A program made the translations under genes and the position numbers. A stretch of 64,000 nucleotides of DNA from a virus. Taxonomy: Duplodnaviria; Caudoviricetes. Shown here piece after piece: positions 2,562 to 19,741 of the stretch. A model generated the notes under the pieces. The model did no database searches. It was not told the origin of the DNA and saw only the letters and a program-made list of their open reading frames with translations. The number at the start of each line of letters is the position of its first letter. Within the stretch, counting starts at the first letter, position 1. The stretch lies in IMG/VR virus record IMGVR_UViG_3300046819_000361; one strand, given 5' to 3'.

Positions 2562-2634
2562 AGTTTTCCTATATGTTACTGAGTATTTATTATTTGAGGT
2601 TATCAATCATCTGGGTAGTTACCAAAACTAATTA

Positions 2635-2710
2635 GGGGTGACCGATGGGACTTGAACCCATAAAATTCTGAATCACAATCAGGGTCGTCTACCAATTCCG
2701 ACACGGCCAC
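2635..2710 (-). tRNA. tRNA-His(GTG), no encoded CCA
   Basis: Cloverleaf, loop TTGTGAT, C discriminator, 3' end reads CCT; acceptor extended by a flanking inverted repeat. Confidence 0.8.
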
Positions 2711-2728
2711 ACCTAATTAGTCTAATTT

Positions 2729-3214
2729 TATAATAAACCACACTACGGAAGGATTCGAACCTTCGGTTGCCGTCGCACTCAACACACCAGTGTACCTCAA
2801 TACGAATCGAACGTATCTTACCACCATTTATAGTGTAGTTTATTATATAATCATATAGTAAAGTGCATTAAACGAGGGAACACGAATGCTACACATCCTC
2901 CTGTCTCCGGCCCTCAAGCTTAACATCCTCCTGGCCAGTGATGTTAAGGTGACTGATTAATGCACTTTAATATAAAATTATATAGAAACACATGCTGAAG
3001 GACGAACGGCGTATTTCCATCGAAGAACTATATCTTTCTCATCGCCGTATAGCTTCCCGCACGATATAGTCTGAGTTGCGCTTCAGGATGTGTTTTTATA
3101 TAATCATATAATAAAGCATACTACACGGAATTGAACCGTCTTCATTCAAGCCCGGAGCTCAAACTGTGATCCACACAACGCTGATCAGACGCTAATATGC
3201 TTTATTATATGATT
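2729..3214 (-). ncRNA. Four tandem long-stem-closed structured RNAs (2729-2847, 2853-2974, 2979-3102, 3102-3214)
   Basis: Each has a 17-22 bp terminal inverted repeat around a GC-richer structured core; no ORFs. Confidence 0.6.
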
Positions 3215-3290
3215 TGGTAGGACCGCCGAGACTCGAACTCGAATTCCCGGATTAAAAGTCCGGTGTTCTAACCAATTGAACTACGATCCC
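3215..3290 (-). tRNA. tRNA-Lys(TTT)
   Basis: Cloverleaf, loop CTTTTAA, CCA. Confidence 0.93.
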
Positions 3291-3333
3291 AAATTTTCTT
3301 GCCTTCTTTTTCTGTTTTTGTCTTTCGTTTCAT
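3268..3333 (-). CDS. Lys-rich 21-aa mini-ORF reading into tRNA-Lys
   Basis: AGGA SD; MKRKTKTEKEGKKIWDRSSIG-TAG. Confidence 0.4.
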   Translation of the reverse strand: MKRKTKTEKEGKKIWDRSSIG

Positions 3334-3356
3334 AATTATTTCCTATGTTGTTATAG

Positions 3357-3418
3357 CAGGATACGTTTTTACTAGTTGAATTAAAAGTTCAGTGTAAATT
3401 GTTTGCTGAATGTATCCT
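3357..3418 (-). ncRNA. Bulged-helix RNA, copy 5 (Lys-UUU anticodon stem-loop)
   Basis: AGGAUACA-UUCAGCA ... UGAA-CUUUUAA-UUCA ... CGUAUCCUG. Confidence 0.65.
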
Positions 3419-3437
3419 AAAACTGTTTATGCTGTTA

Positions 3438-3465
3438 ATTATACAGCATTTTTATACGTTGTCAA
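3438..3465 (-). promoter_or_regulatory. Sigma70-type promoter
   Basis: TTGACA-16-TATAAT. Confidence 0.7.
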
Positions 3466-3778
3466 TTATTTTATCTGGATATTGTGCATCACGGCGTTCA
3501 ATTTCAGCATATGGACTGTAGCCAGGCTGTAATTCCGTGATATTAGTAAATCCATTGGTTTCTGTAATCAAACTATCATTAGAATCGATAGAACCACGAT
3601 ATTTACTACCATAACTACCTTCTAATTTACCAGTACTCGGATTAAGATCACCCCATTTAGTGTGATTACCACCGATAACTTCAATATAGTAGGTTTTACC
3701 AGTTCGGTATGAATAAACAACATGTCTACCGGTATCTTCAGTTTTTGTAAAAAATTTCTTTCGGGTTTCTTCGTCCAT
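3452..3778 (-). CDS. Conserved phage hypothetical protein
   Basis: Start MDEETRKK with AAGGA SD; longer call overlaps tRNA-Val. Confidence 0.7.
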   Translation of the reverse strand: MDEETRKKFFTKTEDTGRHVVYSYRTGKTYYIEVIGGNHTKWGDLNPSTGKLEGSYGSKYRGSIDSNDSLITETNGFTNITELQPGYSPYAEIERRDAQYPDKIIDNV

Positions 3779-3796
3779 AATAGTTTCCTTTGTGTT

Positions 3797-3870
3797 TGGT
3801 GCTTTAGAAAGGAATCGAACCTCTGTCTGCTCGGTGTAAACGAACGGCCCTACCATTAGACGACTAAAGC
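3797..3870 (-). tRNA. tRNA-Val(TAC)
   Basis: Cloverleaf, loop TTTACAC, CCA. Confidence 0.88.
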
Positions 3871-3879
3871 TATAATTGT

Positions 3880-4047
3880 TGCTTTCTTATTCCCGGCTAT
3901 CACAGAGGTTGCCACTTGTACTTCATGGTTCTCAACTTGCAGGTTCTGGCGGAACAGAATTCTCGTATTGCCAACGTGCTTTTGGTTCAAAGCATACCAC
4001 CCGTGTGTATCACCACACTTCTTATCCTCTGGGTCAGAGTATCCGTT
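3880..4047 (-). ncRNA. Candidate structured ncRNA (~165 nt)
   Basis: Non-coding, GC-elevated; CAGAGG/CCUCUG closing stem and three internal hairpins. Confidence 0.45.
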
Positions 4048-4049
4048 GA

Positions 4050-4328
4050 TTAGACGGTTCGATCTTCAAGAACTTGTTGTTCCCATTTACTTTTTAAATA
4101 GATCTTTTGACCATGCAACCAATATTCTTCTTCTGTAAAATTAGTAATAACAGCAGGGCCATGTTCATTATGATATTTCCCATCTTGGCAATAACAAGTT
4201 CTGCGGCCATCATATCTAATAATTGCTGGTCCATTTGTGTTATGCGATCTTCCATTTTTCATAAAAACTATTGTTGTATCAGATACGCTAATAGTGAGTT
4301 CAGGATTGTCTGGGTTAATATATTCCAT
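4050..4328 (-). CDS. Hypothetical protein with HNxxGPA repeats
   Basis: Two HN.(N/H)GPA(I/V)I repeats. Confidence 0.65.
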   Translation of the reverse strand: MEYINPDNPELTISVSDTTIVFMKNGRSHNTNGPAIIRYDGRRTCYCQDGKYHNEHGPAVITNFTEEEYWLHGQKIYLKSKWEQQVLEDRTV

Positions 4329-4353
4329 AATTACCAAATTGTAAAGTTAAAAT

Positions 4354-4429
4354 TGGTGCTACCGACTGGGATCGAACCAGTATAGCTGGATTTTCAGTCC
4401 AGTGCATGAACCATCACTGCCACAGTAGC
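4354..4429 (-). tRNA. tRNA-Phe(GAA)
   Basis: Cloverleaf, loop CTGAAAA, CCA. Confidence 0.9.
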
Positions 4430-4437
4430 AAAATTAT

Positions 4438-4491
4438 CAGGATACGCTTTTTCATTTTTCAAGAATGTTTTTTAATTGCTGCATGTATCCT
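4438..4491 (-). ncRNA. Bulged-helix RNA, copy 6 (Ser-UGA anticodon stem-loop)
   Basis: AGGAUACA-UGCAGCA ... CAUU-CUUGAAA-AAUG ... GCGUAUCCUG; TTGCAA-17-TATAAT promoter just upstream. Confidence 0.65.
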
Positions 4492-4514
4492 AAAACTGTG
4501 TAAATTATAACGTA

Positions 4515-5045
4515 TTATTTGAACATTTGCAAGATATTTTTCATAGCATCTGTATTACTATCCCATGTTTGTCCGCCAAATCGTCCGTATTCTATACGGT
4601 TATCAGCAGACCATTTATTATAATAATCGGACAATTCACCATTGCATTCCAATAGTGTATCACCGTAATTGATTATCATTACATTAGGATTCATGCAATC
4701 ACGAATTGAATAAACCTTCTCAAACGCTTCTTTAATACCCATGCCATGTTGTATTAGTACTAGAATAGCAGTTGCTGTACTTCTACTAACACCAGCATGA
4801 CAATGAATTAAAACTTTATCAGTATCAGTAAATGTTTTACTGAATTCTAAAATATTTTCAATATTTTGTAAAGTAGGATGTTGATATCCTTCTAATGGTA
4901 CTTCAATATCATGAAATCTTTCTACGTGATGTTCCACATCACAATCAAATACTTTGGTATTTGGATCAACAATGCTAATGACTTTAGTATGGGTTGGTAC
5001 CCATAAACTTGCTTCGTATAATCCTGATATAGTTATATCTAACAT
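4515..5045 (-). CDS. Cys-based protein tyrosine/dual-specificity phosphatase
   Basis: HCHAGVSRS (CX5R) motif. Confidence 0.88.
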   Translation of the reverse strand: MLDITISGLYEASLWVPTHTKVISIVDPNTKVFDCDVEHHVERFHDIEVPLEGYQHPTLQNIENILEFSKTFTDTDKVLIHCHAGVSRSTATAILVLIQHGMGIKEAFEKVYSIRDCMNPNVMIINYGDTLLECNGELSDYYNKWSADNRIEYGRFGGQTWDSNTDAMKNILQMFK

Positions 5046-5061
5046 TTTTTACCTCAAAAAT

Positions 5062-5113
5062 TGGCGGGGCTATAATTGCTGTTAAAATCCTTGACAGGAT
5101 TTATTTTGGCCCC
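5062..5113 (-). ncRNA. Bulged-helix RNA, copy 7 (permuted handle on a CCA-ended acceptor stem)
   Basis: GGGGC...AAUCCU-GUCA-AGGAUU-UUAACAGCA...GCCCC-G-CCA. Confidence 0.6.
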
Positions 5114-5121
5114 ATTATATT

Positions 5122-5197
5122 TGGCGACCCTACCCGGTGACGATCCGGGTTTACTATCGTGAAAGGATAGTGTTCTACCAACGTAAACTATAGGGTC
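5122..5197 (-). tRNA. tRNA-Glu(TTC)
   Basis: Cloverleaf, loop CTTTCAC, atypical T-loop ATCGTCA, CCA. Confidence 0.85.
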
Positions 5198-6024
5198 TTA
5201 TTTTTCGTATATTGGTTTCTACCCGTAATATTCCCAGGTGTTACCCGTTTTCCATTACAAGTTCTTGAACAATATACATTAATTGTTTTTAATTTTTTAT
5301 CACGTGTAAAATTTTTACCACAATGTGAACATGTGTACTCGTATAAAGGTTTATACCCATCGTATAGTGTATAATATTTTTCAGTATTATAAGTTTCTTT
5401 TACATATGTAAAAGCATATTTCAAATCATTAAATCGTAAAACATGTACATTATATCCAAAACTTTCAGCAACCTGTGTTTTTAAATCCACTGATTTTTGA
5501 TTTTCATAACCTTTTGTTTCTATTATAGTTTTATTATCCGATAAAATAAAATCAGGGTAATATTTAATACCATTTCTTTCCAAATAACCGTCAAATCTAG
5601 AAAATTTAATATTATGATCTAAATTGTATATTACCCAGCATAATTCATATGTTGATCCACAATAAATGCCATTATAATATCCTGATTTTGATCTACCAGA
5701 ACCATTTCTATATCCACCTATGTGTTTGGAACTACATTCTTTTGAACAATATTTTTTATTACTCGTTTTTATTATTCTAAAATCTGTTCCACACTCTACA
5801 CATTGTCTAATCTCACGAATAGCAAATTCTTTGCCTTTTGTAGAGGCAGGTTTAATACCTAGCTTCTTAAATGTAAGAGATGTTTTTATCTTTTGTTCTT
5901 CACTTGGTTTCCATCCAGAGTCTTTCCGTTTTCTGTTATTATATTTCGCTGAACACGATCTATTACAAAACTTTTTTGCATCTTTACTGATTAAAGTGTT
6001 TCCACATTCTAAACAATTATTCAT
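5188..6024 (-). CDS. Free-standing homing endonuclease, PD-(D/E)xK type with Zn-finger repeats
   Basis: YYPDF...IIETKG; three CxxC..CSxxC modules; TATAAATA at 6044-6051. Confidence 0.75.
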   Translation of the reverse strand: MNNCLECGNTLISKDAKKFCNRSCSAKYNNRKRKDSGWKPSEEQKIKTSLTFKKLGIKPASTKGKEFAIREIRQCVECGTDFRIIKTSNKKYCSKECSSKHIGGYRNGSGRSKSGYYNGIYCGSTYELCWVIYNLDHNIKFSRFDGYLERNGIKYYPDFILSDNKTIIETKGYENQKSVDLKTQVAESFGYNVHVLRFNDLKYAFTYVKETYNTEKYYTLYDGYKPLYEYTCSHCGKNFTRDKKLKTINVYCSRTCNGKRVTPGNITGRNQYTKNKTL

Positions 6025-6081
6025 CTGTAATCTCCATATAGAGTATTTATATGGAATTGAACTTTATTGCATTTTTTGATT

Positions 6082-6111
6082 ATAGTGTTCTAACCATTAA
6101 ACTACCAGGAT
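6082..6111 (-). pseudogene. Orphan 5' half of a tRNA-Glu-like gene
   Basis: ATCCTGG-TA-GTTTAATGGTTAGAAC-A-CTATA matches the D arm and anticodon 5' strand of the downstream tRNA-Glu; no matching 3' half. Confidence 0.65.
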
Positions 6112-6117
6112 ATAAAC

Positions 6118-6230
6118 TTTTATATAGAAACACACTCGTTTCTGAGCTTTCGGTATGTATGCCTACACTTTAGGATAGCCCCTGCGTCCAGTTGCTCAGT
6201 ATCCCTACCGTGAATGTGTTTTTATATAAA
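6118..6230 (-). ncRNA. Long-stem-closed structured RNA
   Basis: tttatatagaaacaca/tgtgtttttatataaa closing stem, same as at 2979-3102; crossing internal complementarities. Confidence 0.55.
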
Positions 6231-6231
6231 T

Positions 6232-6310
6232 TGGTCTCCGTAGCAGGATTTGAACCTGCGAATCCTCTCGATCCCAAATCGAGCGCTCTACCAAACTGAG
6301 CTATACGGAG
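6232..6310 (-). tRNA. tRNA-Pro(TGG)
   Basis: Cloverleaf, loop TTTGGGA, CCA. Confidence 0.92.
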
Positions 6311-6323
6311 ATAATTAAAATAT

Positions 6324-6416
6324 TGGTGGGTGTCCACGGATTCGAACCGCGAATGTTTACCACGAGGGACTTGATTTACAGTCAAGAGAGGCACACGCCA
6401 TAGCCTCAAGACACCC
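6324..6416 (-). tRNA. tRNA-Tyr(GTA), long D and variable arms
   Basis: Loop CTGTAAA, GAGGC/GCCTC D stem, CCA. Confidence 0.85.
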
Positions 6417-6423
6417 AATAATT

Positions 6424-6630
6424 TATAACACTCTCCCACTATGTGTTTAGACGGTTCGTAGCCGAATGAAGAGTGTATATTAAAACATACTCACTTTAAC
6501 TTGTCAAGAACCGTAATTCTTAATGCTGATCTAGTATGTTTTAATATTAAAACACACTGGTGGGTCGTTCAAATCCACTGTCTACATTCCGTAGAAATCA
6601 AATTCTACTATTCTCAATGTGTTTTAATAT
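6424..6630 (-). ncRNA. Three tandem long-stem-closed hairpin RNAs (6424-6479, 6478-6546, 6544-6630)
   Basis: Terminal inverted repeats such as tattaaaacatact/agtatgttttaata. Confidence 0.5.
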
Positions 6631-6771
6631 TTCTAGGTTTTTCCACACACCACACAAGGTGCTTCTCATCCCCTAGACCGCCCTCATTAATAGCTCATTT
6701 TTATAGTGGTGAGCAGAATCGCGTTTTCTAATAGAGACCAATATTTCATTCTCTATACCACTGTACTTCAT

Positions 6772-7200: not shown

Positions 7201-7653
7201 TTAGTAGAGTGTTAAGAATTCTACTACATTGGTGTGAAGTTCATTATAAATTTTATCACCCCATGTTACAGCATCTTGTTCAGTAACCCTAAAATTATAG
7301 TTTTCTGGTTGAATGAACAATTTATTTGTATCATTGTATCTGCTTTTTTCAATGGTGTCAACCCATATTGTGATAGTTGGGTTAATAATTTCCCTAAATT
7401 CAGGTAATGGTGCTACCATATCTATTAGTATATAGCCATTTTCAACCTCATCAGCAAAATTTTTCATTCGTTGTGCTTGACGAAGTCTCCCATCATATGA
7501 AAAATCCCAATCATTAAATTTTTCTCTTACTTCATCGGCATTGTACCAATGAACTTGGTAATCTGCAAGTTCTAATTTCTTTTTTAGTTCATTGGCTAGG
7601 GTAGTTTTACCAGAGCCCGGTAATCCCATGATCAAAATTGTTTTTTTACTCAT
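7201..7653 (-). CDS. Adenylylsulfate-kinase-like P-loop kinase
   Basis: GLPGSGKTT, NADEVR, GRLRQA motifs. Confidence 0.8.
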   Translation of the reverse strand: MSKKTILIMGLPGSGKTTLANELKKKLELADYQVHWYNADEVREKFNDWDFSYDGRLRQAQRMKNFADEVENGYILIDMVAPLPEFREIINPTITIWVDTIEKSRYNDTNKLFIQPENYNFRVTEQDAVTWGDKIYNELHTNVVEFLTLY

Positions 7654-7752
7654 ATAATTCATCAGTTTCTGAAAAATGGCTTCAAACAAGCCTTACGAAT
7701 GTATTTAGTACCATTTGGTTGACTGTCTATTAAAAAATCAGATTTTTTTACA

Positions 7753-8331
7753 TTACAAAGATACAGGATCCAACAATACCGGTGTATCACCACGTACCAT
7801 AATGTTAGATTCTCTTAAATCTAAATCATAGACGATATTATCGCACCAATACTTCAAAAATTTGTAAATCCACGGGAATTTATTGATTGATCTCTTTTGA
7901 TGATTACTGAGTTCATGATATGATCGTCGATCAATCAAAGAATAGGCCATATCATCTATAACAACTGAAATCTTATCATATTCACCAGGTAATAACGGGT
8001 GTAGTTTCTCTAATCTCACCAGATATGTATCTGAAGTAATTTGTATTATCCCACCTTTAATTTTAGGTAGATTAGGATTGTCCTGATTGCTTAATACGTA
8101 TCTAATGAAGCACAAATAGGCATCATCACCACGAAATATCTTAAACACCCAAGAATAACCAGGATACATATATGCAGAACCATTTGAACCACTACCAAGA
8201 TGTTCAAAACCATAATGATTCATTACATCTTTCCATTGTTCGAATTGATCATCTAATTTTACATCCCTACAATCTTGCTCAAATATTTCTTTAGCTTTAA
8301 TGTATAAAGAATTTCTTTTATACCCAATCAT
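7753..8331 (-). CDS. Protein-kinase-fold protein
   Basis: LGSGSNGSAY, VFK, DLRESNIM, LLDP motifs. Confidence 0.7.
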   Translation of the reverse strand: MIGYKRNSLYIKAKEIFEQDCRDVKLDDQFEQWKDVMNHYGFEHLGSGSNGSAYMYPGYSWVFKIFRGDDAYLCFIRYVLSNQDNPNLPKIKGGIIQITSDTYLVRLEKLHPLLPGEYDKISVVIDDMAYSLIDRRSYHELSNHQKRSINKFPWIYKFLKYWCDNIVYDLDLRESNIMVRGDTPVLLDPVSL

Positions 8332-8354: not shown

Positions 8355-8885
8355 AATACTAAAGGAGAACTAACGTTCTCCTGTTCTTCGCTATCGCTCA
8401 TCACATTTTTTATAATTTCTATCTTACCTATTCAACTAGATTACGATTTACTTTTGCCCCCATAAAGGGAGCAAAAAAATAATTTCAACTGAGTTGACTT
8501 CATTAGTAGAGTTACACTGGTTACAGAGGCGGTTGGCCGATACCTCGAAGTGCGTTTTTGTTTCTGTTGTCCAACGGTGGCATTAGGAAAATACTCTACC
8601 ATATTCCTAATACGTCCAGGAATTACCTGGTCATTTAGCCTTTTTATCTTTTGTTTAAACATTCGAAATTGGTTGTACGTAGGCGTATCCAATCATCATT
8701 TGCATCACAATGTGCAAGTAGTCGAATGAGTCGCTGCTTCTACTCAGCTGTTTCCCTCCATGCGAAGAACATTCCATTTCCTGGGGCACCTGTCAAACCA
8801 CCGGTGCGAGTGTATCAGAAGTGTATAGCCTGAAAAAGTGCCTGTGAAATCATATTTATCGTTGCCTAAATTTATTTGCCTAATG
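8355..8885 (-). ncRNA. Candidate large (~500 nt) structured ncRNA
   Basis: No credible ORF, at least 8 hairpins, TAGACA-17-TATAAT promoter at 8891-8919. Confidence 0.45.
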
Positions 8886-9632: not shown

Positions 9633-9638
9633 TTACTA

Positions 9639-9850
9639 TTTATAGTAACAGTCTTGGGGTTCTAGATATTTCCTCTCAATAGGTTTCACAGCTTTTCCAT
9701 AGCTCTACCTATATTATGCACTTTTTCCTGACTGTGACAGGGAACACAGTAACTTAAGCATACTATACACAGTCTAACTGTTCTCTATGAAAACTCTCTG
9801 TTTACCCTTTGCTACGGGCGTGTTCCTTACCGTGCTGGTCTATACTATAA
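9639..9850 (-). ncRNA. Candidate ~210-nt stem-closed structured RNA
   Basis: ttatagta/tactataa closing stem, internal hairpins, non-coding. Confidence 0.4.
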
Positions 9851-9859
9851 AAATAAAAT

Positions 9860-10261: not shown

Positions 10262-10336
10262 TGGTGCACCCGATGGGATTCGAACCCATTGTCGCAAGTT
10301 TTAGAGGCTTGTGCTATACCTAGTAGCTTCGGGTGC
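10262..10336 (-). tRNA. Amber suppressor tRNA (anticodon CTA)
   Basis: Cloverleaf; CAAGC-CTCTAAA-ACTTG puts CTA at 34-36; CCA. Confidence 0.8.
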
Positions 10337-10758: not shown

Positions 10759-11328
10759 TTATTGATAACCGCTGACGATATCGCCTAACTCAAGACCATC
10801 GAACCCGGCTCCAATTGCCTGGAATGAGAATTGTCCATCACGTTTGAAGAATGATCCAACTTGAACGGCTGTTTCATTTTTGTAGTCAGCATCTAGATCA
10901 TAGAATGCAATTTCCTCATTGGTATCAGCATTTAAGATTTTGATACCTGCTTCAGGTACCTGACCAAAAGACTGACCACGAGATACAGCTTCATGGATGG
11001 TTACAACAATTGAAATTTCATCAACTGTTGCTGGTAACGTATTGATATCGATGAAAACCTCTTCGGTACCACCTTGACGCATATCTGGTGTTTTTGAAAC
11101 ACTTTTTTCAGGTGTCGCTTCATTGTTATAGAACACCAAATAGTCATCACCTAACAACTTCGGACCATTATCGGTTGTTTTCAAAACAAACGCTGATACA
11201 TCTAAATCATATTTTGGATTGTTATCTGGAACATTCCACCATAATACTGCCTTTACCTTTCCCATGGCAGGTTGTGATTTGGTTAGGTTGATACCTTTAT
11301 TTTCAGATTTTGCAAGATTAATTGCCAT
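10759..11328 (-). CDS. terD: TerD-family stress protein
   Basis: INLTK, DLDVSAF, VFYNN, VVTIHEA..RGQSFGQV, FQAIGAG. Confidence 0.88.
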   Translation of the reverse strand: MAINLAKSENKGINLTKSQPAMGKVKAVLWWNVPDNNPKYDLDVSAFVLKTTDNGPKLLGDDYLVFYNNEATPEKSVSKTPDMRQGGTEEVFIDINTLPATVDEISIVVTIHEAVSRGQSFGQVPEAGIKILNADTNEEIAFYDLDADYKNETAVQVGSFFKRDGQFSFQAIGAGFDGLELGDIVSGYQ

Positions 11329-14326: not shown

Positions 14327-14846
14327 GGTATTTTTGGTTATAAGGTATTTCCTACCCCAGAATTCGCTGGTTATTAAGCAGCGATAGCATCAAAGATGCC
14401 ATCTACAGTGTAGAATTCAAATTTAGAATCGTTTGCGATTACTATGTTTATGCTGATTAGGTCAGTCATATCTCCTGTTGCCTTCTCCACTATTACACCA
14501 CGTCGAAACCAACTGTCATTCCCATCATAAAAACATAGGTACTCCCCTTTGAAGGGGCAGGGAGTTTATGGCTATGGCCCCACTCTGATACCAACCTATG
14601 TTCTTATGGTGGAAATGCCCGGGGTCGAACCGGGGTCCGCAATGCCTTTATTTTGAAGGAATAACAACAATTCTGTATATCTATACCGCACACCCTTGCG
14701 ACTTCAGCCTGTTAAGGTAGAGCTACTAAATAGAAGTCATAGAGTTCTATATGTTCGCATAGATAAGTTAAATATCTAACTATGGTTCAATAATGGCGTA
14801 CCACTCCTAATCGTTTGTACTATGTACCGGATTTAAGTTAGACTAT
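14327..14846 (-). ncRNA. ssrA: Circularly permuted (two-piece) tmRNA; tag ANDSKFEFYTVDGIFDAIAA at 14374-14436
   Basis: Acceptor piece ends GGUUCGACCCCGGGCAUUUCCACCA (14607), coding piece starts GGGAAUG (14523); G3-U70; promoter at 14853-14880; 5' boundary uncertain. Confidence 0.88.
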
Positions 14847-17671: not shown

Positions 17672-19741
17672 TTACTTACTAGTGGCAACAAATGTGCCAT
17701 CCCAATCTTCTGGTAATGAATTACTGTTTTTGTATTCAGCAATACGATCAATCATCATTTCATAATAATGATCCATGTCACCATCAAACTCACATAATAA
17801 TTGTTTACACATTTCAGAAGCCACATCCCAATGTTTGCTTCGATAGGTATTTAACATTTGGTTGTGGTAAGATAATGCTGGATAATAATAATCATCATGA
17901 TTAAAATCATCCAAATGGCTTAACACAGTAAAAATGTGTACTCCTTCTTTCTTACCTTTTACCGCGATTTTATCAAGTTCGATTATAAAGTATTCGTCTT
18001 TGATATAGTCTGCTGTCTTCGTGCCCAGAACGATTTTGACGCCGTATGGCTTGCTTTGGCCTTCAAGACGTGAAGCGAGGTTAACCCCATCTCCAAGGCA
18101 AGTATAATCAAAGCGCTGATTGCTACCCATATTACCAACAACGACAGTATCAGTGTTAATACCAAGTCCCATACCGAATGCAGGTACCCCCTCTTTCTCG
18201 ATCTCATCATTAAACTCCTTTAAGTTAATTAACATTTGTAATGCTGTTTTTACAGCATGTTTTGCATGATCGGGGTCATCTAGTGGGGCATTCCAAAACG
18301 CCATTTGAGCATCGCCGATATATTTGTCTAATGTTCCATCGTTTTCAATGATTTTTGCGGTCATAGCAGTCATATAACGGTTCATTATTTGTGTCAATCC
18401 TTGTACATTTTTACCATAATGTTCTGAAATAGATGTGAATCCACGTACATCTGTAAACATAATTGAAAGTTCACGTGACTCACCGCCTAATGTTAATAAT
18501 TCAGGATTTTTCTGTAATTTTTCTACTAAAGCAGGGCTTAAATAAGTGCCAAATTGTTTTTTAATTTGTTGCTTTTGAAAGAATTCACTGAGGAATTTAA
18601 CACCGTAAGCATGTAAACCAACCAACACTATACCACTTACGAAAGCAGTTATGTCAAACAGATACAAATATGTTAAAAATACATAGTGACTGGCGAATAC
18701 GGCACCAACTGACAGTGCAATTATTGATGCTAGCCCAATATAAATCCATCTAGTGAGGAATAACAATATAGTACCAGTTATTAATAATACTAATACCTCC
18801 ACGCCATCTGCATAATCAGGGCGTTGGATAACAACCCCATTCATCATTGTTCCTATTACTGCTGCTTGTGCTTCATGTGGAAAGATAGCACCATTGGCAG
18901 TTGGTATTGGGTTACCAATCCCTGCTGCGGTTGGTCCAACAATGACGATCCCACCAATAAAATCGTAATCATCTGTGATAGTATTTAAACCTTTGTTGAT
19001 AGACTTCTGACTCCAATCAATCCAGATACGGCCTAAATTATCAGTAGTGATCGGTCCAAATTTAGGAATTCTCAGTTTTTCAACGCCATTTTCATTTAGT
19101 TTGATTTGGAATGTAGTATCACCAGCCGCAACCCGTAACGTTTCTAAACCTAACGATGGGTATAACTTATCCTTAACTGAAACCACTAATGGCATTCTAC
19201 GATTAACCCCGTCTATTTCTGGTAAGGTATTAACTGTGCCAACGCCTGCTGCTTCATCATTCAATATTTCAATATTTGAAATGATACCTGGGTATTGAAT
19301 TATTCTATCAAGGAAATCTGGGCCTAATACAGCCGCACCTGGTACTCTTGGGGTATTTTTAGTAAAATCAGCTGGTATGCTTGGTAAAATAACCAAGTTA
19401 TTTTTTAATGTATTAGATAATACTTTATCCCCGCCCTGACGGTCAGGTTCTGGCATCAAAACGTTAAAAACGACCAACCCAGCGTTATGCTTATATAGAT
19501 CTTCGATTATTTGAGCATATATATCGCGTTTAAATGGCCATTGTCCATACTTATCTAATGAGTTTTCATCGATATTAATAGTATAAATTGGATTATTTGT
19601 GATAGGTTTTGCTGAAATAAGCGTGTCAAAATATCGTAATCTAACACTTTCCACAAATTCTGGATCAGAAATTCGAACACTTAATATTACAATCAATGTT
19701 AATAATGCCGTCCAAGGGTTTAATAATATTTTTTTAATCAT
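17672..19741 (-). CDS. CHASE2-domain class III adenylate/guanylate cyclase
   Basis: GQWPFKR CHASE2, three TMs, FTDVRGFT, DKYIGDA, GDGVNLASRLEG. Confidence 0.93.
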   Translation of the reverse strand: MIKKILLNPWTALLTLIVILSVRISDPEFVESVRLRYFDTLISAKPITNNPIYTINIDENSLDKYGQWPFKRDIYAQIIEDLYKHNAGLVVFNVLMPEPDRQGGDKVLSNTLKNNLVILPSIPADFTKNTPRVPGAAVLGPDFLDRIIQYPGIISNIEILNDEAAGVGTVNTLPEIDGVNRRMPLVVSVKDKLYPSLGLETLRVAAGDTTFQIKLNENGVEKLRIPKFGPITTDNLGRIWIDWSQKSINKGLNTITDDYDFIGGIVIVGPTAAGIGNPIPTANGAIFPHEAQAAVIGTMMNGVVIQRPDYADGVEVLVLLITGTILLFLTRWIYIGLASIIALSVGAVFASHYVFLTYLYLFDITAFVSGIVLVGLHAYGVKFLSEFFQKQQIKKQFGTYLSPALVEKLQKNPELLTLGGESRELSIMFTDVRGFTSISEHYGKNVQGLTQIMNRYMTAMTAKIIENDGTLDKYIGDAQMAFWNAPLDDPDHAKHAVKTALQMLINLKEFNDEIEKEGVPAFGMGLGINTDTVVVGNMGSNQRFDYTCLGDGVNLASRLEGQSKPYGVKIVLGTKTADYIKDEYFIIELDKIAVKGKKEGVHIFTVLSHLDDFNHDDYYYPALSYHNQMLNTYRSKHWDVASEMCKQLLCEFDGDMDHYYEMMIDRIAEYKNSNSLPEDWDGTFVATSK

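Follow-up and report, generated by a model that had tools for sequence, protein, structure and literature searches.

Helix-clamped RNA cassettes with changing cores lie between the tRNA genes of uncultured giant phages

Results

Eight helix-closed units in a phage tRNA array

The 64,000-nt stretch of IMG/VR record IMGVR_UViG_3300046819_000361 (all of it referred to here as the window) comes from a giant lake-water phage that is uncultured. Its genes include those for DnaK, for ribonucleotide reductase and for a transfer-messenger RNA (tmRNA) of the circularly permuted type. The first 10.4 kb hold 12 tRNA genes, every one of them on the minus strand, which is the tRNA-sense strand and the sense strand for all of the RNA units described below. 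Comparison of the window with known phage records matched the tRNAs alone, and a cultured relative was not found. An earlier model-made reading of the sequence (the original prediction) had proposed that this array contains abutting RNA cassettes closed by long AT-rich stems. Eight abutting units were indeed found on the minus strand, with A/U-rich closing helices of 11–22 bp and whole-unit folding z-scores between −2.2 and −5.7. The units and the tRNAs next to them are as follows.

2635-2710, minus strand: tRNA-His, downstream neighbour of U1, inside a leader–trailer helix of ~10 bp spanning 2627..2721
2729..2847, minus strand: U1, 119 nt; 18-bp closing helix; two T-loop hairpins, the second 2 nt ahead of the 3′ arm
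2853..2974, minus strand: U2, 122 nt; 17-bp closing helix with one U·C mismatch; two core hairpins
2979..3102, minus strand: U3, 124 nt; 22-bp interrupted closing helix including an A·C mismatch
3102..3214, minus strand: U4, 113 nt; 22-bp closing helix; T-loop hairpin 1 nt ahead of the 3′ arm
3215..3290, minus strand: tRNA-Lys(UUU), whose CCA adjoins U4
6118..6230, minus strand: U5, 113 nt; 18-bp closing helix; A·C mismatch as in U3
6232-6310, minus strand: tRNA-Pro, upstream of U5
6324-6416, minus strand: tRNA-Tyr, downstream of U6 (the tRNA-Tyr and tRNA-Pro block is 6232..6416)
6424..6479, minus strand: U6, 56-nt hairpin unit; helix of ~11 bp; ends 7 nt upstream of tRNA-Tyr
6477..6547, minus strand: U7, 71 nt; 15-bp closing helix; arms AUAUUAAAACAUACU / AGUAUGUUUUAAUAU
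6543..6631, minus strand: U8, 89 nt; 17-bp closing helix; arms AUAUUAAAACACAUUG / CAGUGUGUUUUAAUAU

In the arms the 5′ strand is rich in A (UAUUAAAACA...) and the 3′ strand is rich in U (...UGUUUUAAUA), and the proposed arm consensus, UAUAWWAAA.CA / UG.UUUWWUAUA, is real. Variants of it occur in the window (e.g. UAUAUAAAAACAC, UAUAAUAAAC and UAUAUUAAAG), and U7 and U8 have a central AAUAUU in common. U4 begins directly after the CCA of tRNA-Lys and U5 begins 2 nt past tRNA-Pro, the 3′ end of U1 lies 18 nt upstream of tRNA-His, and U8, U7 and U6 stand at the operon head ahead of tRNA-Tyr, an arrangement also seen in several relatives. When the whole 64-kb window was scanned for helices, a score of at least 30 was reached by U1–U5, U7, U8 and a stem inside the tmRNA gene, with U6 scoring below 22. 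The original prediction had also pointed to similar stems in two other places; the one inside the tmRNA gene (14517-14617) is a 23-bp helix, but the one at 9639-9850 proved to be a chance-level 14-bp A/U stem, in a region (9633-9856) that had a folding z-score of −0.78 and no homolog in any relative.

T-loop hairpins are present in some of the cores, as had been proposed, with two in U1, one in U4 and none in the other units. The double pseudoknots read into U3 (2979-3102) and U5 (6118-6230) gained no support, since each comes down to a single 6-bp complementarity, ~1.5 of which would be expected by chance per 113-nt RNA according to our estimate, and the U3 and U5 orthologs have no informative variation bearing on them. 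Searches of the cores and whole units with the Rfam 15 covariance models gave no family at the gathering score; at E values up to 10 there was sub-threshold noise (e.g. microRNA and plastid untranslated-region models) together with an 18-nt tRNA T-arm match in U1, and no cloverleaf was recognised in the units by ARAGORN or by RF00005. The sponge, aptamer or ribozyme roles that had been suggested for the cores thus gain no support from Rfam, no family of which matches any core.

Conserved arms enclose changing cores in distant relatives

Distant arrays were reached via homologs (~63% identity) of the neighbouring open reading frame (ORF) at 2187-2606. The arms of U7 and U8 are identical letter for letter in these arrays, and the cores they enclose are unrelated in sequence and length. 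U7 arms surround unrelated cores in the related contigs L009 and L016 (L numbers denote contigs of relatives) and in many metagenome contigs, and downstream of tRNA-Lys in L009 the arms of U8 enclose a core other than that of the window; the U8 core had no match in any fetched locus. U6 is the sole unit with a recognisable ortholog in the distant L009 (79% identity).

A search with the arm pattern ATATTAAAACAYA-N40-70-TRTGTTTTAATAT returned 44 contigs in IMG/VR and, among metagenomes, at least 120 more. Only one match was obtained in 185,579 prokaryote genomes; it had no tRNA nearby and was judged to be due to chance, and a host origin of the arms was rejected on that basis. The 108 distinct units among the matches listed, 64–128 nt in size, fall into 62 unrelated core clusters, in agreement with the original prediction of one stem around unrelated cores. 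Further arm variants were observed, including UAUAAAAACA, UAUGAAAACA and UAUUGAAG..., and one unit of L043 is a 37-bp perfect hairpin. Among the matches listed, Rfam models run on 19 related loci identified no family in any core and gave only tRNA, tmRNA, GOLLD and one group I intron.

Tandem runs of five to seven clamp-closed units with no tRNA between them were seen at L027:9466-10525, which has seven units, and at L053:11591-12457; these runs use other arm variants (UCAUUUUGAAGUAU... and UCAUAUUCAAAUGC...).

The closing helix is set against the tRNA ends

Among the 56 units of the related arrays with a nearby upstream tRNA, 52 start at the exact terminal A of its CCA, and a tRNA lies within 18 nt downstream in 60 of the 108 units, at +1 in 22 of the 60. 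The 3′ arm is followed by GG(U), which pairs with the CC of CCA in 41 of 52 units and often with the discriminator base too, and which is kept even where no tRNA directly follows. This pairing and placement indicate that the helix clamps the CCA end and that its 3′ strand, with ...AAUAU as its last bases ahead of +1, provides the following tRNA with its leader. The length of the helix is confined to a narrow range (16–18 bp in 78 of 108 units, median 17 bp), or ~19–21 bp once the CC:GG and N73 pairs are included. The first 14 nt past the CCA have the consensus U-A-U-(U/A)-A-A-A-A-C-A-(C/U)-A-(U/C)-U, with the A-rich strand always at the 5′ side.

Terminal helices of at least 12 bp were present in 68 of 228 distinct inter-tRNA spacers of 46–150 nt, compared with 0 after shuffling. 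Since 59% of the spacers between tRNAs in these arrays do not exceed 20 nt, cassettes appear to be optional cargo that is not required for processing. The same clamp design recurs in the tmRNA gene of the window, and the same hairpin is found in L009, L016, L045 and L048.

14517..14617, minus strand: tmRNA intervening hairpin; 23-bp helix that begins at the CCA end and reaches the G of the mature 5′ end

Pairing is selected in the sense-strand RNA

The base pairs of the closing helices were counted in the tRNA-sense reading, giving 1706 Watson–Crick pairs, 103 G·U pairs and 3 A·C combinations. A single degenerate arm pair shows the same tendency, being C-G 68 times, U-A 20 times, U-G 18 times and C·A twice. 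Matches of core families to one another were in the same orientation in 240 cases and inverted in 0. The large excess of G·U over A·C and the absence of inversion show that pairing is selected in the sense-strand RNA.

Covariation across related phages was found as compensatory changes in several cores, with compensatory pairs inside the cores of three families, A5, A8 and A9. Family A5 (14 sequences) has compensatory pairs 17-59 and 18-58 at the inner end of the clamp and 24-38 in a core hairpin (CG in 11 sequences, UA in 3); it also contains a GNRA hairpin and an unpaired GUAAG.UGGC that does not vary. In family A9, which has a GUAA/GCAA loop, the compensatory pairs are 25-53 and 30-46, and family A8 displays a similar, weaker pattern. 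T-loop hairpins are present in 6 of 108 cores compared with 0.2 after shuffling, and GNRA hairpins in 22 of 108 compared with 10.

Cassettes are gained and lost whole among close relatives

The array of the window is shared with four IMG/VR contigs and several metagenome contigs. U4 has orthologs in all close relatives, 99–100% identical to it. Other cassettes have been gained or lost whole between near-identical phages: U3 is present only in the window and L003 and missing from three lineages, its indel breakpoint falling at the exact unit boundary with AUU on either side, and U1 is missing, again with a clean boundary, from one lineage (L001/L002). The AUU at U3 comes from the one clean comparison of an empty with a filled site, and target-site duplication or microhomology would account for it equally.

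Comparison of U2 among four lineages revealed 10 transitions in predicted pairs that lead to G·U and 0 that break pairing (p ~0.001 by our own calculation if half of the transitions are expected to break a pair), and one transversion that breaks a pair. The compensatory changes in the three families and the pairs kept in U2 point to selection on the cores. Folding energy gave no signal for cores alone.

In relatives, U5 ends 7–8 nt ahead of tRNA-Glu, and at this position the window has an endonuclease gene. The insertions of this kind are as follows.

5188-6024 of the window, minus strand: HNH endonuclease gene of the homing-endonuclease type, inserted between U5 and the tRNA-Glu site
L013:8806-9438: DUF559 endonuclease gene of the homing-endonuclease type, between tRNA-Lys and U4

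The cassette/tRNA junctions that carry these endonuclease insertions are only a few nt long in sister phages.

A Ro60-fold protein is encoded by relatives

Of seven partial relatives, five have a gene for a DUF2828/DUF7788 protein. By synteny with close relatives it maps ~8 kb beyond the left edge of the window, 10–14 kb from the units.

L060:856-2268, minus strand: DUF2828/DUF7788 protein gene, 470 aa; Ro60 fold by model; same strand as the array

The predicted model of this protein (pLDDT 91) matches Ro60 over its full length, namely 1YVR (E = 7e-9), 2I91 and the Thermus phage phiLo Ro60 9L5Y. It was built from an alignment of 62 sequences, and a single-sequence fold gave a pLDDT of 46. Searches of the protein sequence against PDB chains and Pfam TROVE found nothing. 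Ro binds Y RNAs through the motif GNCGAA(N0-1)G (or CGAA), which is located in their terminal stem, either on its 5′ strand or in a bulge (PMC4201824, PMC12135203). The motif GNCGAA(N0-1)G is in no unit, and its sole two matches on the minus strand below position 11000 lie outside the units.

Neighbouring genes and other occupants of the arrays

Three genes in, beside or upstream of the tRNA operon encode enzymes.

7753..8331, minus strand: T7 gp0.7-like protein kinase gene (phrog_15752, E = 9.8e-9), upstream of the tRNA operon head
7201-7689, minus strand: small P-loop kinase gene (APS-kinase/KTI12-like, with a weak polynucleotide-kinase match), in or beside the tRNA operon
4515-5045, minus strand: dual-specificity (Cys) phosphatase gene, in or beside the tRNA operon

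The gp0.7-like kinase is 45% identical to an ortholog in L013 that carries the precomputed label PF27024 Phage_T7_kinase, and the description of its PHROG family records stimulation of RNase III. Together, the gp0.7-like kinase, the P-loop kinase and the phosphatase might control RNases or heal RNA ends.

Some genuine tRNAs of relatives (Pro, Asn, Cys and Gly) are themselves enclosed by perfect leader–trailer helices of 17–21 bp that extend the acceptor stem, and the tRNA-Pro of L009 apparently has no encoded CCA.

L009:8543-8641; L013:16339-16429 and 19215-19309; L016:18058-18159; window 2627-2721 (tRNA-His): tRNAs enclosed by leader–trailer pairing

Other non-tRNA elements were also observed in these arrays. 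Just upstream of the array in the window are a Polynucleobacter-1 RNA (8657-8812, minus strand, 64.6 bits) and an amber-suppressor tRNA with anticodon CUA (10262-10336, minus strand). A 179-nt non-coding stretch downstream of tRNA-Val (3871-4049, minus strand) is kept in close relatives, and its 3′ half is 75–80% identical in five distant contigs (L167, L158, L128, L124 and L040); it is probably another structured RNA. Related tRNA-array contigs hold a GOLLD RNA (L045:8466-8886, minus strand, 196 bits) and a group I intron (L023:4941-5132, plus strand, 60.5 bits). A family of mini-ORFs (AGGAGA...ATG..., with a ribosome-binding site and ~45–80 codons) fills some inter-tRNA spacers in L047, L164, L085, L136 and others, examples being Leu(UAA)-Ser(GCU) and Ser(GCU)-Asn. 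Spacers of ~95 nt that end ...GGTTCGATCCCAG...CTCCACCA in L136, L052, L085 and L164, e.g. Leu(UAG)-Ser(UGA), resemble complete class II tRNAs missed by ARAGORN.

Discussion

Probable cassette release during tRNA processing

The cassettes constitute a real and widespread class of clamp-closed RNAs in phage tRNA operons that is uncatalogued in Rfam. Our preferred reading, to which we assign a probability of roughly 0.58, is that they are sense-strand RNA cassettes carried in polycistronic phage tRNA transcripts, closed by the clamp and excised during tRNA processing, with cores that are under selection. Because the stem lies flush between the CCA and the 5′ end of the next tRNA, excision in the course of tRNA-operon processing is the natural interpretation of its position. 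The original prediction of a shared processing stem that releases a repertoire of RNAs is partly supported: a conserved, RNA-level stem flush with the tRNA ends is borne out, whereas the sponge, aptamer and ribozyme roles attached to it find no support.

Each cassette is envisaged as an independently folding domain shut by the conserved A/U-rich helix, with the clamp marking and presenting both cut sites. RNase P acting at the downstream tRNA would free the 3′ end of the cassette, and the upstream CCA end would be freed, and tandem cassettes parted, by an endonuclease that cleaves within the clamp or at its edge. In a tandem run such as U4-U3-U2-U1, the internal junctions would need an enzyme that cuts duplexes or linkers. 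The first choice for this endonuclease would be RNase III acting on the ~19–21-bp duplex, and the alternative would be RNase E acting at the AUAUU base. The product would be a small hairpin-closed RNA that should resist exonucleases, and the cores would be folded domains of many kinds that selection has maintained one by one, GNRA or T-loop hairpins being part of some. RNase III is plausible as the processing enzyme, although the case for it is weak. It is a reasonable candidate because the duplex measures about two helical turns, because of the analogy with rRNA operons and T7 early RNA and because of the gp0.7-like kinase gene upstream; the helix length is compatible with an RNase III site but at the short end (11–22 bp in the window, family median 17). 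The flush junctions point equally to RNase P and a 3′-end endonuclease.

Several observations weigh against excised cassettes with selected cores. When the cores of the window were folded without their arms, their stability was not above that of shuffled sequence (z = −1.55 to +0.80), so that folding energy backs the closing helices only. Among these cores, U2 alone has enough variation for a test of pairing, and the changes in U1 break as many of the predicted inner pairs as they keep, leaving those inner pairs unsupported. The units of the window are also less canonical than those of relatives: U4 and U5 begin no more than 2 nt away from a CCA, but no GG follows their 3′ arms and the CCA is left unclamped, and U8–U6 are not preceded by a tRNA. 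The unit statistics were drawn from loci fetched by the arm pattern and describe the family, not its prevalence. As for the enzymes, the behaviour of E. coli RNase P suggests that pairing in the leader should impede RNase P cleavage; a phage RNase III gene was not found in five partial relatives (25–58% complete); and the kinase call at 7753-8331 comes from one PHROG hit, with no match in our local copy of Pfam.

Alternative explanations

A tentative alternative, possible in our view but doubtful, is that the clamp alone matters as processing punctuation or insulation, for example as RNase III sites of the kind found in rRNA operons and T7 early RNA, with the cores being passengers folded to avoid mispairing with tRNAs. 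Such a role would suit arms that are far better conserved than the cores, the L043 unit that is merely a 37-bp perfect hairpin, the ordinary stability of cores alone and the tmRNA intervening segment, which has the same clamp and no apparent cargo role. On the other hand, 59% of the tRNA junctions need no more than 20 nt, so a hairpin is dispensable for processing, and passengers would not be expected to form core families that are retained in many phages, with compensatory changes in their pairs and unpaired motifs that never vary (GUAAG.UGGC in A5). The enrichment of GNRA and T-loop hairpins in the cores and the tandem runs of 4–7 cassettes without an intervening tRNA are likewise at odds with it. 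The units might instead be selfish miniature cassettes at the DNA level, either MITE-like or shuffled by recombination, whose arms, as terminal inverted repeats or sites of recombination, let cargo travel from one tRNA junction to another. Their unit-sized indels, which fall at exact boundaries when near-identical phages are compared and have AUU on either side of U3, the occurrence of the same arms and core family between different tRNA pairs (Glu-Tyr, Glu-Leu, Pro-Ser and Arg-Ser) and the homing-endonuclease genes inserted in the same arrays are all in keeping with mobility. We nevertheless consider this unlikely: the two strands are never exchanged, the A-rich arm being the 5′ one throughout, the units are flush with RNA processing sites, and the ratio of 103 G·U to 3 A·C indicates selection on RNA pairing and not on DNA. 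A transposon or MITE identity in particular is weakened by this G·U excess and by the single orientation of the core matches (0 inverted versus 240). Cassettes may still be shuffled by homologous recombination, within their arms or within the tRNA genes on either side, but this need not be what they exist for.

Two further explanations concern the identity of the RNAs. It is quite unlikely that the units are Y-RNA-like partners of the phage Ro60-fold protein, with the closing helix as the Ro handle. Five of seven partial relatives do encode a DUF2828/DUF7788 protein with a Ro60-like model, on the same strand and at the downstream end of the tRNA array, and the units have the size of Y RNAs (80–130 nt), a stem formed by their 5′ and 3′ ends and, in some, a T-arm (PMC4201824). 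However, the GNCGAA(N)G Ro-site motif is in no unit (CGAA was checked by eye only), the YrlA order of D-arm, closed acceptor and T-arm is absent, no unit has a YrlA Rfam match, and the Ro gene is ~10–14 kb away and not within 4 kb. A Y RNA identity was not accepted, in view of the absent Ro-site motif and YrlA arm order and of this distance. That the units are decayed or rearranged tRNA genes with lengthened acceptor stems is very improbable. T-arms do stand beside the 3′ arm in U1, U4, L009:7727-7831 and L045, the units are tRNA-sized and occupy tRNA slots, and some true tRNAs of relatives sit inside leader–trailer helices of 17–21 bp; against these likenesses, 102 of 108 cores are without a T-loop hairpin, no more than 18 nt of U1 are matched by the tRNA model, and the core families have covarying folds and GNRA loops of their own.

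Three other identities were rejected as well. The arms do not fit the R''/R' core sites (RYYYAAC / GTTRRRY) of integron attC sites, and the units abut without an ORF between them; a CRISPR array and a T4 late promoter (TATAAATA) were dismissed on direct reading of the arm sequences. Pairing between the arms spans the core and continues into inner pairs that differ from unit to unit; it does not take place within a repeat.

Comparison with known systems

The closest precedent for cassettes carried in tRNA transcripts is the pair of T4 species 1/2 RNAs (rnaC, 139 nt, and rnaD, 119 nt), small stable RNAs encoded head-to-tail after tRNA-Arg in the same orientation. T4 rnaD begins 1 nt past tRNA-Arg, much as U4 follows directly after tRNA-Lys and U5 begins 2 nt past tRNA-Pro, and rnaC has a T-arm beside a stem made of its own 5′ and 3′ ends, as in U1 and U4. 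The likeness stops at the architecture: blastn of the units against rnaC and rnaD gave T-arm matches only (15–33 nt, mostly 15–25), and the folds differ. The terminal stems of the T4 RNAs are short and acceptor-like, whereas the cassettes have a conserved A/U clamp of 14–22 bp, and T4 has two fixed RNAs, whereas the cassettes comprise more than 60 interchangeable cores. To our knowledge, the function of the T4 species 1/2 RNAs is still unexplained.

The intervening segment of two-piece tmRNAs forms a hairpin between the CCA 3′ end and the 5′ end made by RNase P, and extends the acceptor helix as the clamp does; that of the window (14517-14617) has arms of a composition similar to those of the cassettes. 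Such intervening segments are excised (PMC3985003). The tmRNA segment, however, lies within one tRNA-like domain and its interior is a simple loop, whereas the cassettes lie between two tRNAs. Long leader–trailer duplexes also bracket structured RNA in the RNase III hairpins of rRNA operon stems and T7 early RNA sites, as in the cassettes; the cassette helices, as candidate RNase III sites, differ in being at the short end and in having junctions set by tRNA ends.

Spacers of E. coli tRNA operons (3'ETS-leuZ and the metZWV internal spacers) reportedly persist and act in trans as small-RNA sponges, a finding attributed to Lalaouna et al. in 2015. These spacer sponges indicate that by-products of tRNA processing can have functions. 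They are host-encoded, single-stranded, Hfq-bound pairing sites without a clamp, in contrast to the clamp-closed, phage-encoded cassettes. Fusions of a hairpin or small RNA to a tRNA-like 3′ end, released by tRNA-processing enzymes, are also found in the TMERs of MHV68 and in plant tRNA-snoRNA dicistrons, which are eukaryotic, depend on RNase Z and Pol III, and have no sequence kinship with the cassettes. Functional tRNA-operon spacers of E. coli are a topic of PMC6191717. Finally, the Y RNAs (YrlA, and Yrl1/2 of phiLo) resemble the cassettes in their 80–130-nt size, in a terminal stem around a variable module and in the T-arm of some members; they differ in that the T-arms of U1 and U4 adjoin the closing helix and in that the cassettes have no D-arm, closed acceptor, GNCGAA/CGAA motif or Ro-gene adjacency.

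Possible function and significance

If the cassettes are excised as proposed, a speculative view of their purpose is that they form a fast-turning library of small structured RNAs that piggy-backs on tRNA processing. The interchangeable cores might act in trans against the host, as decoys or inhibitors of factors that include defence nucleases directed at tRNAs and the RNA quality control machinery, or they might be clients of the Ro60-fold protein, with the clamp guaranteeing release and stability. This idea, which we regard as one tentative possibility, would explain why there are at least 62 core classes, why cassettes come and go between near-identical phages and why T-loop and GNRA modules are present.

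An arrangement known since the T4 era, small stable RNAs within phage tRNA clusters, has turned modular in a large clade of uncultured giant freshwater phages, in which one conserved clamp, tied to the CCA and to the 5′ end of the next tRNA, carries dozens of unrelated and individually conserved RNA folds. If released as predicted, the cassettes would show in nature what engineers have built by expressing RNAs between flanking tRNAs, and they would be a rich source of new structured RNA classes. They would also provide a defined sequence set for asking which non-tRNA RNAs phages need during infection, including those that might work with a Ro60-like protein or against host defences.

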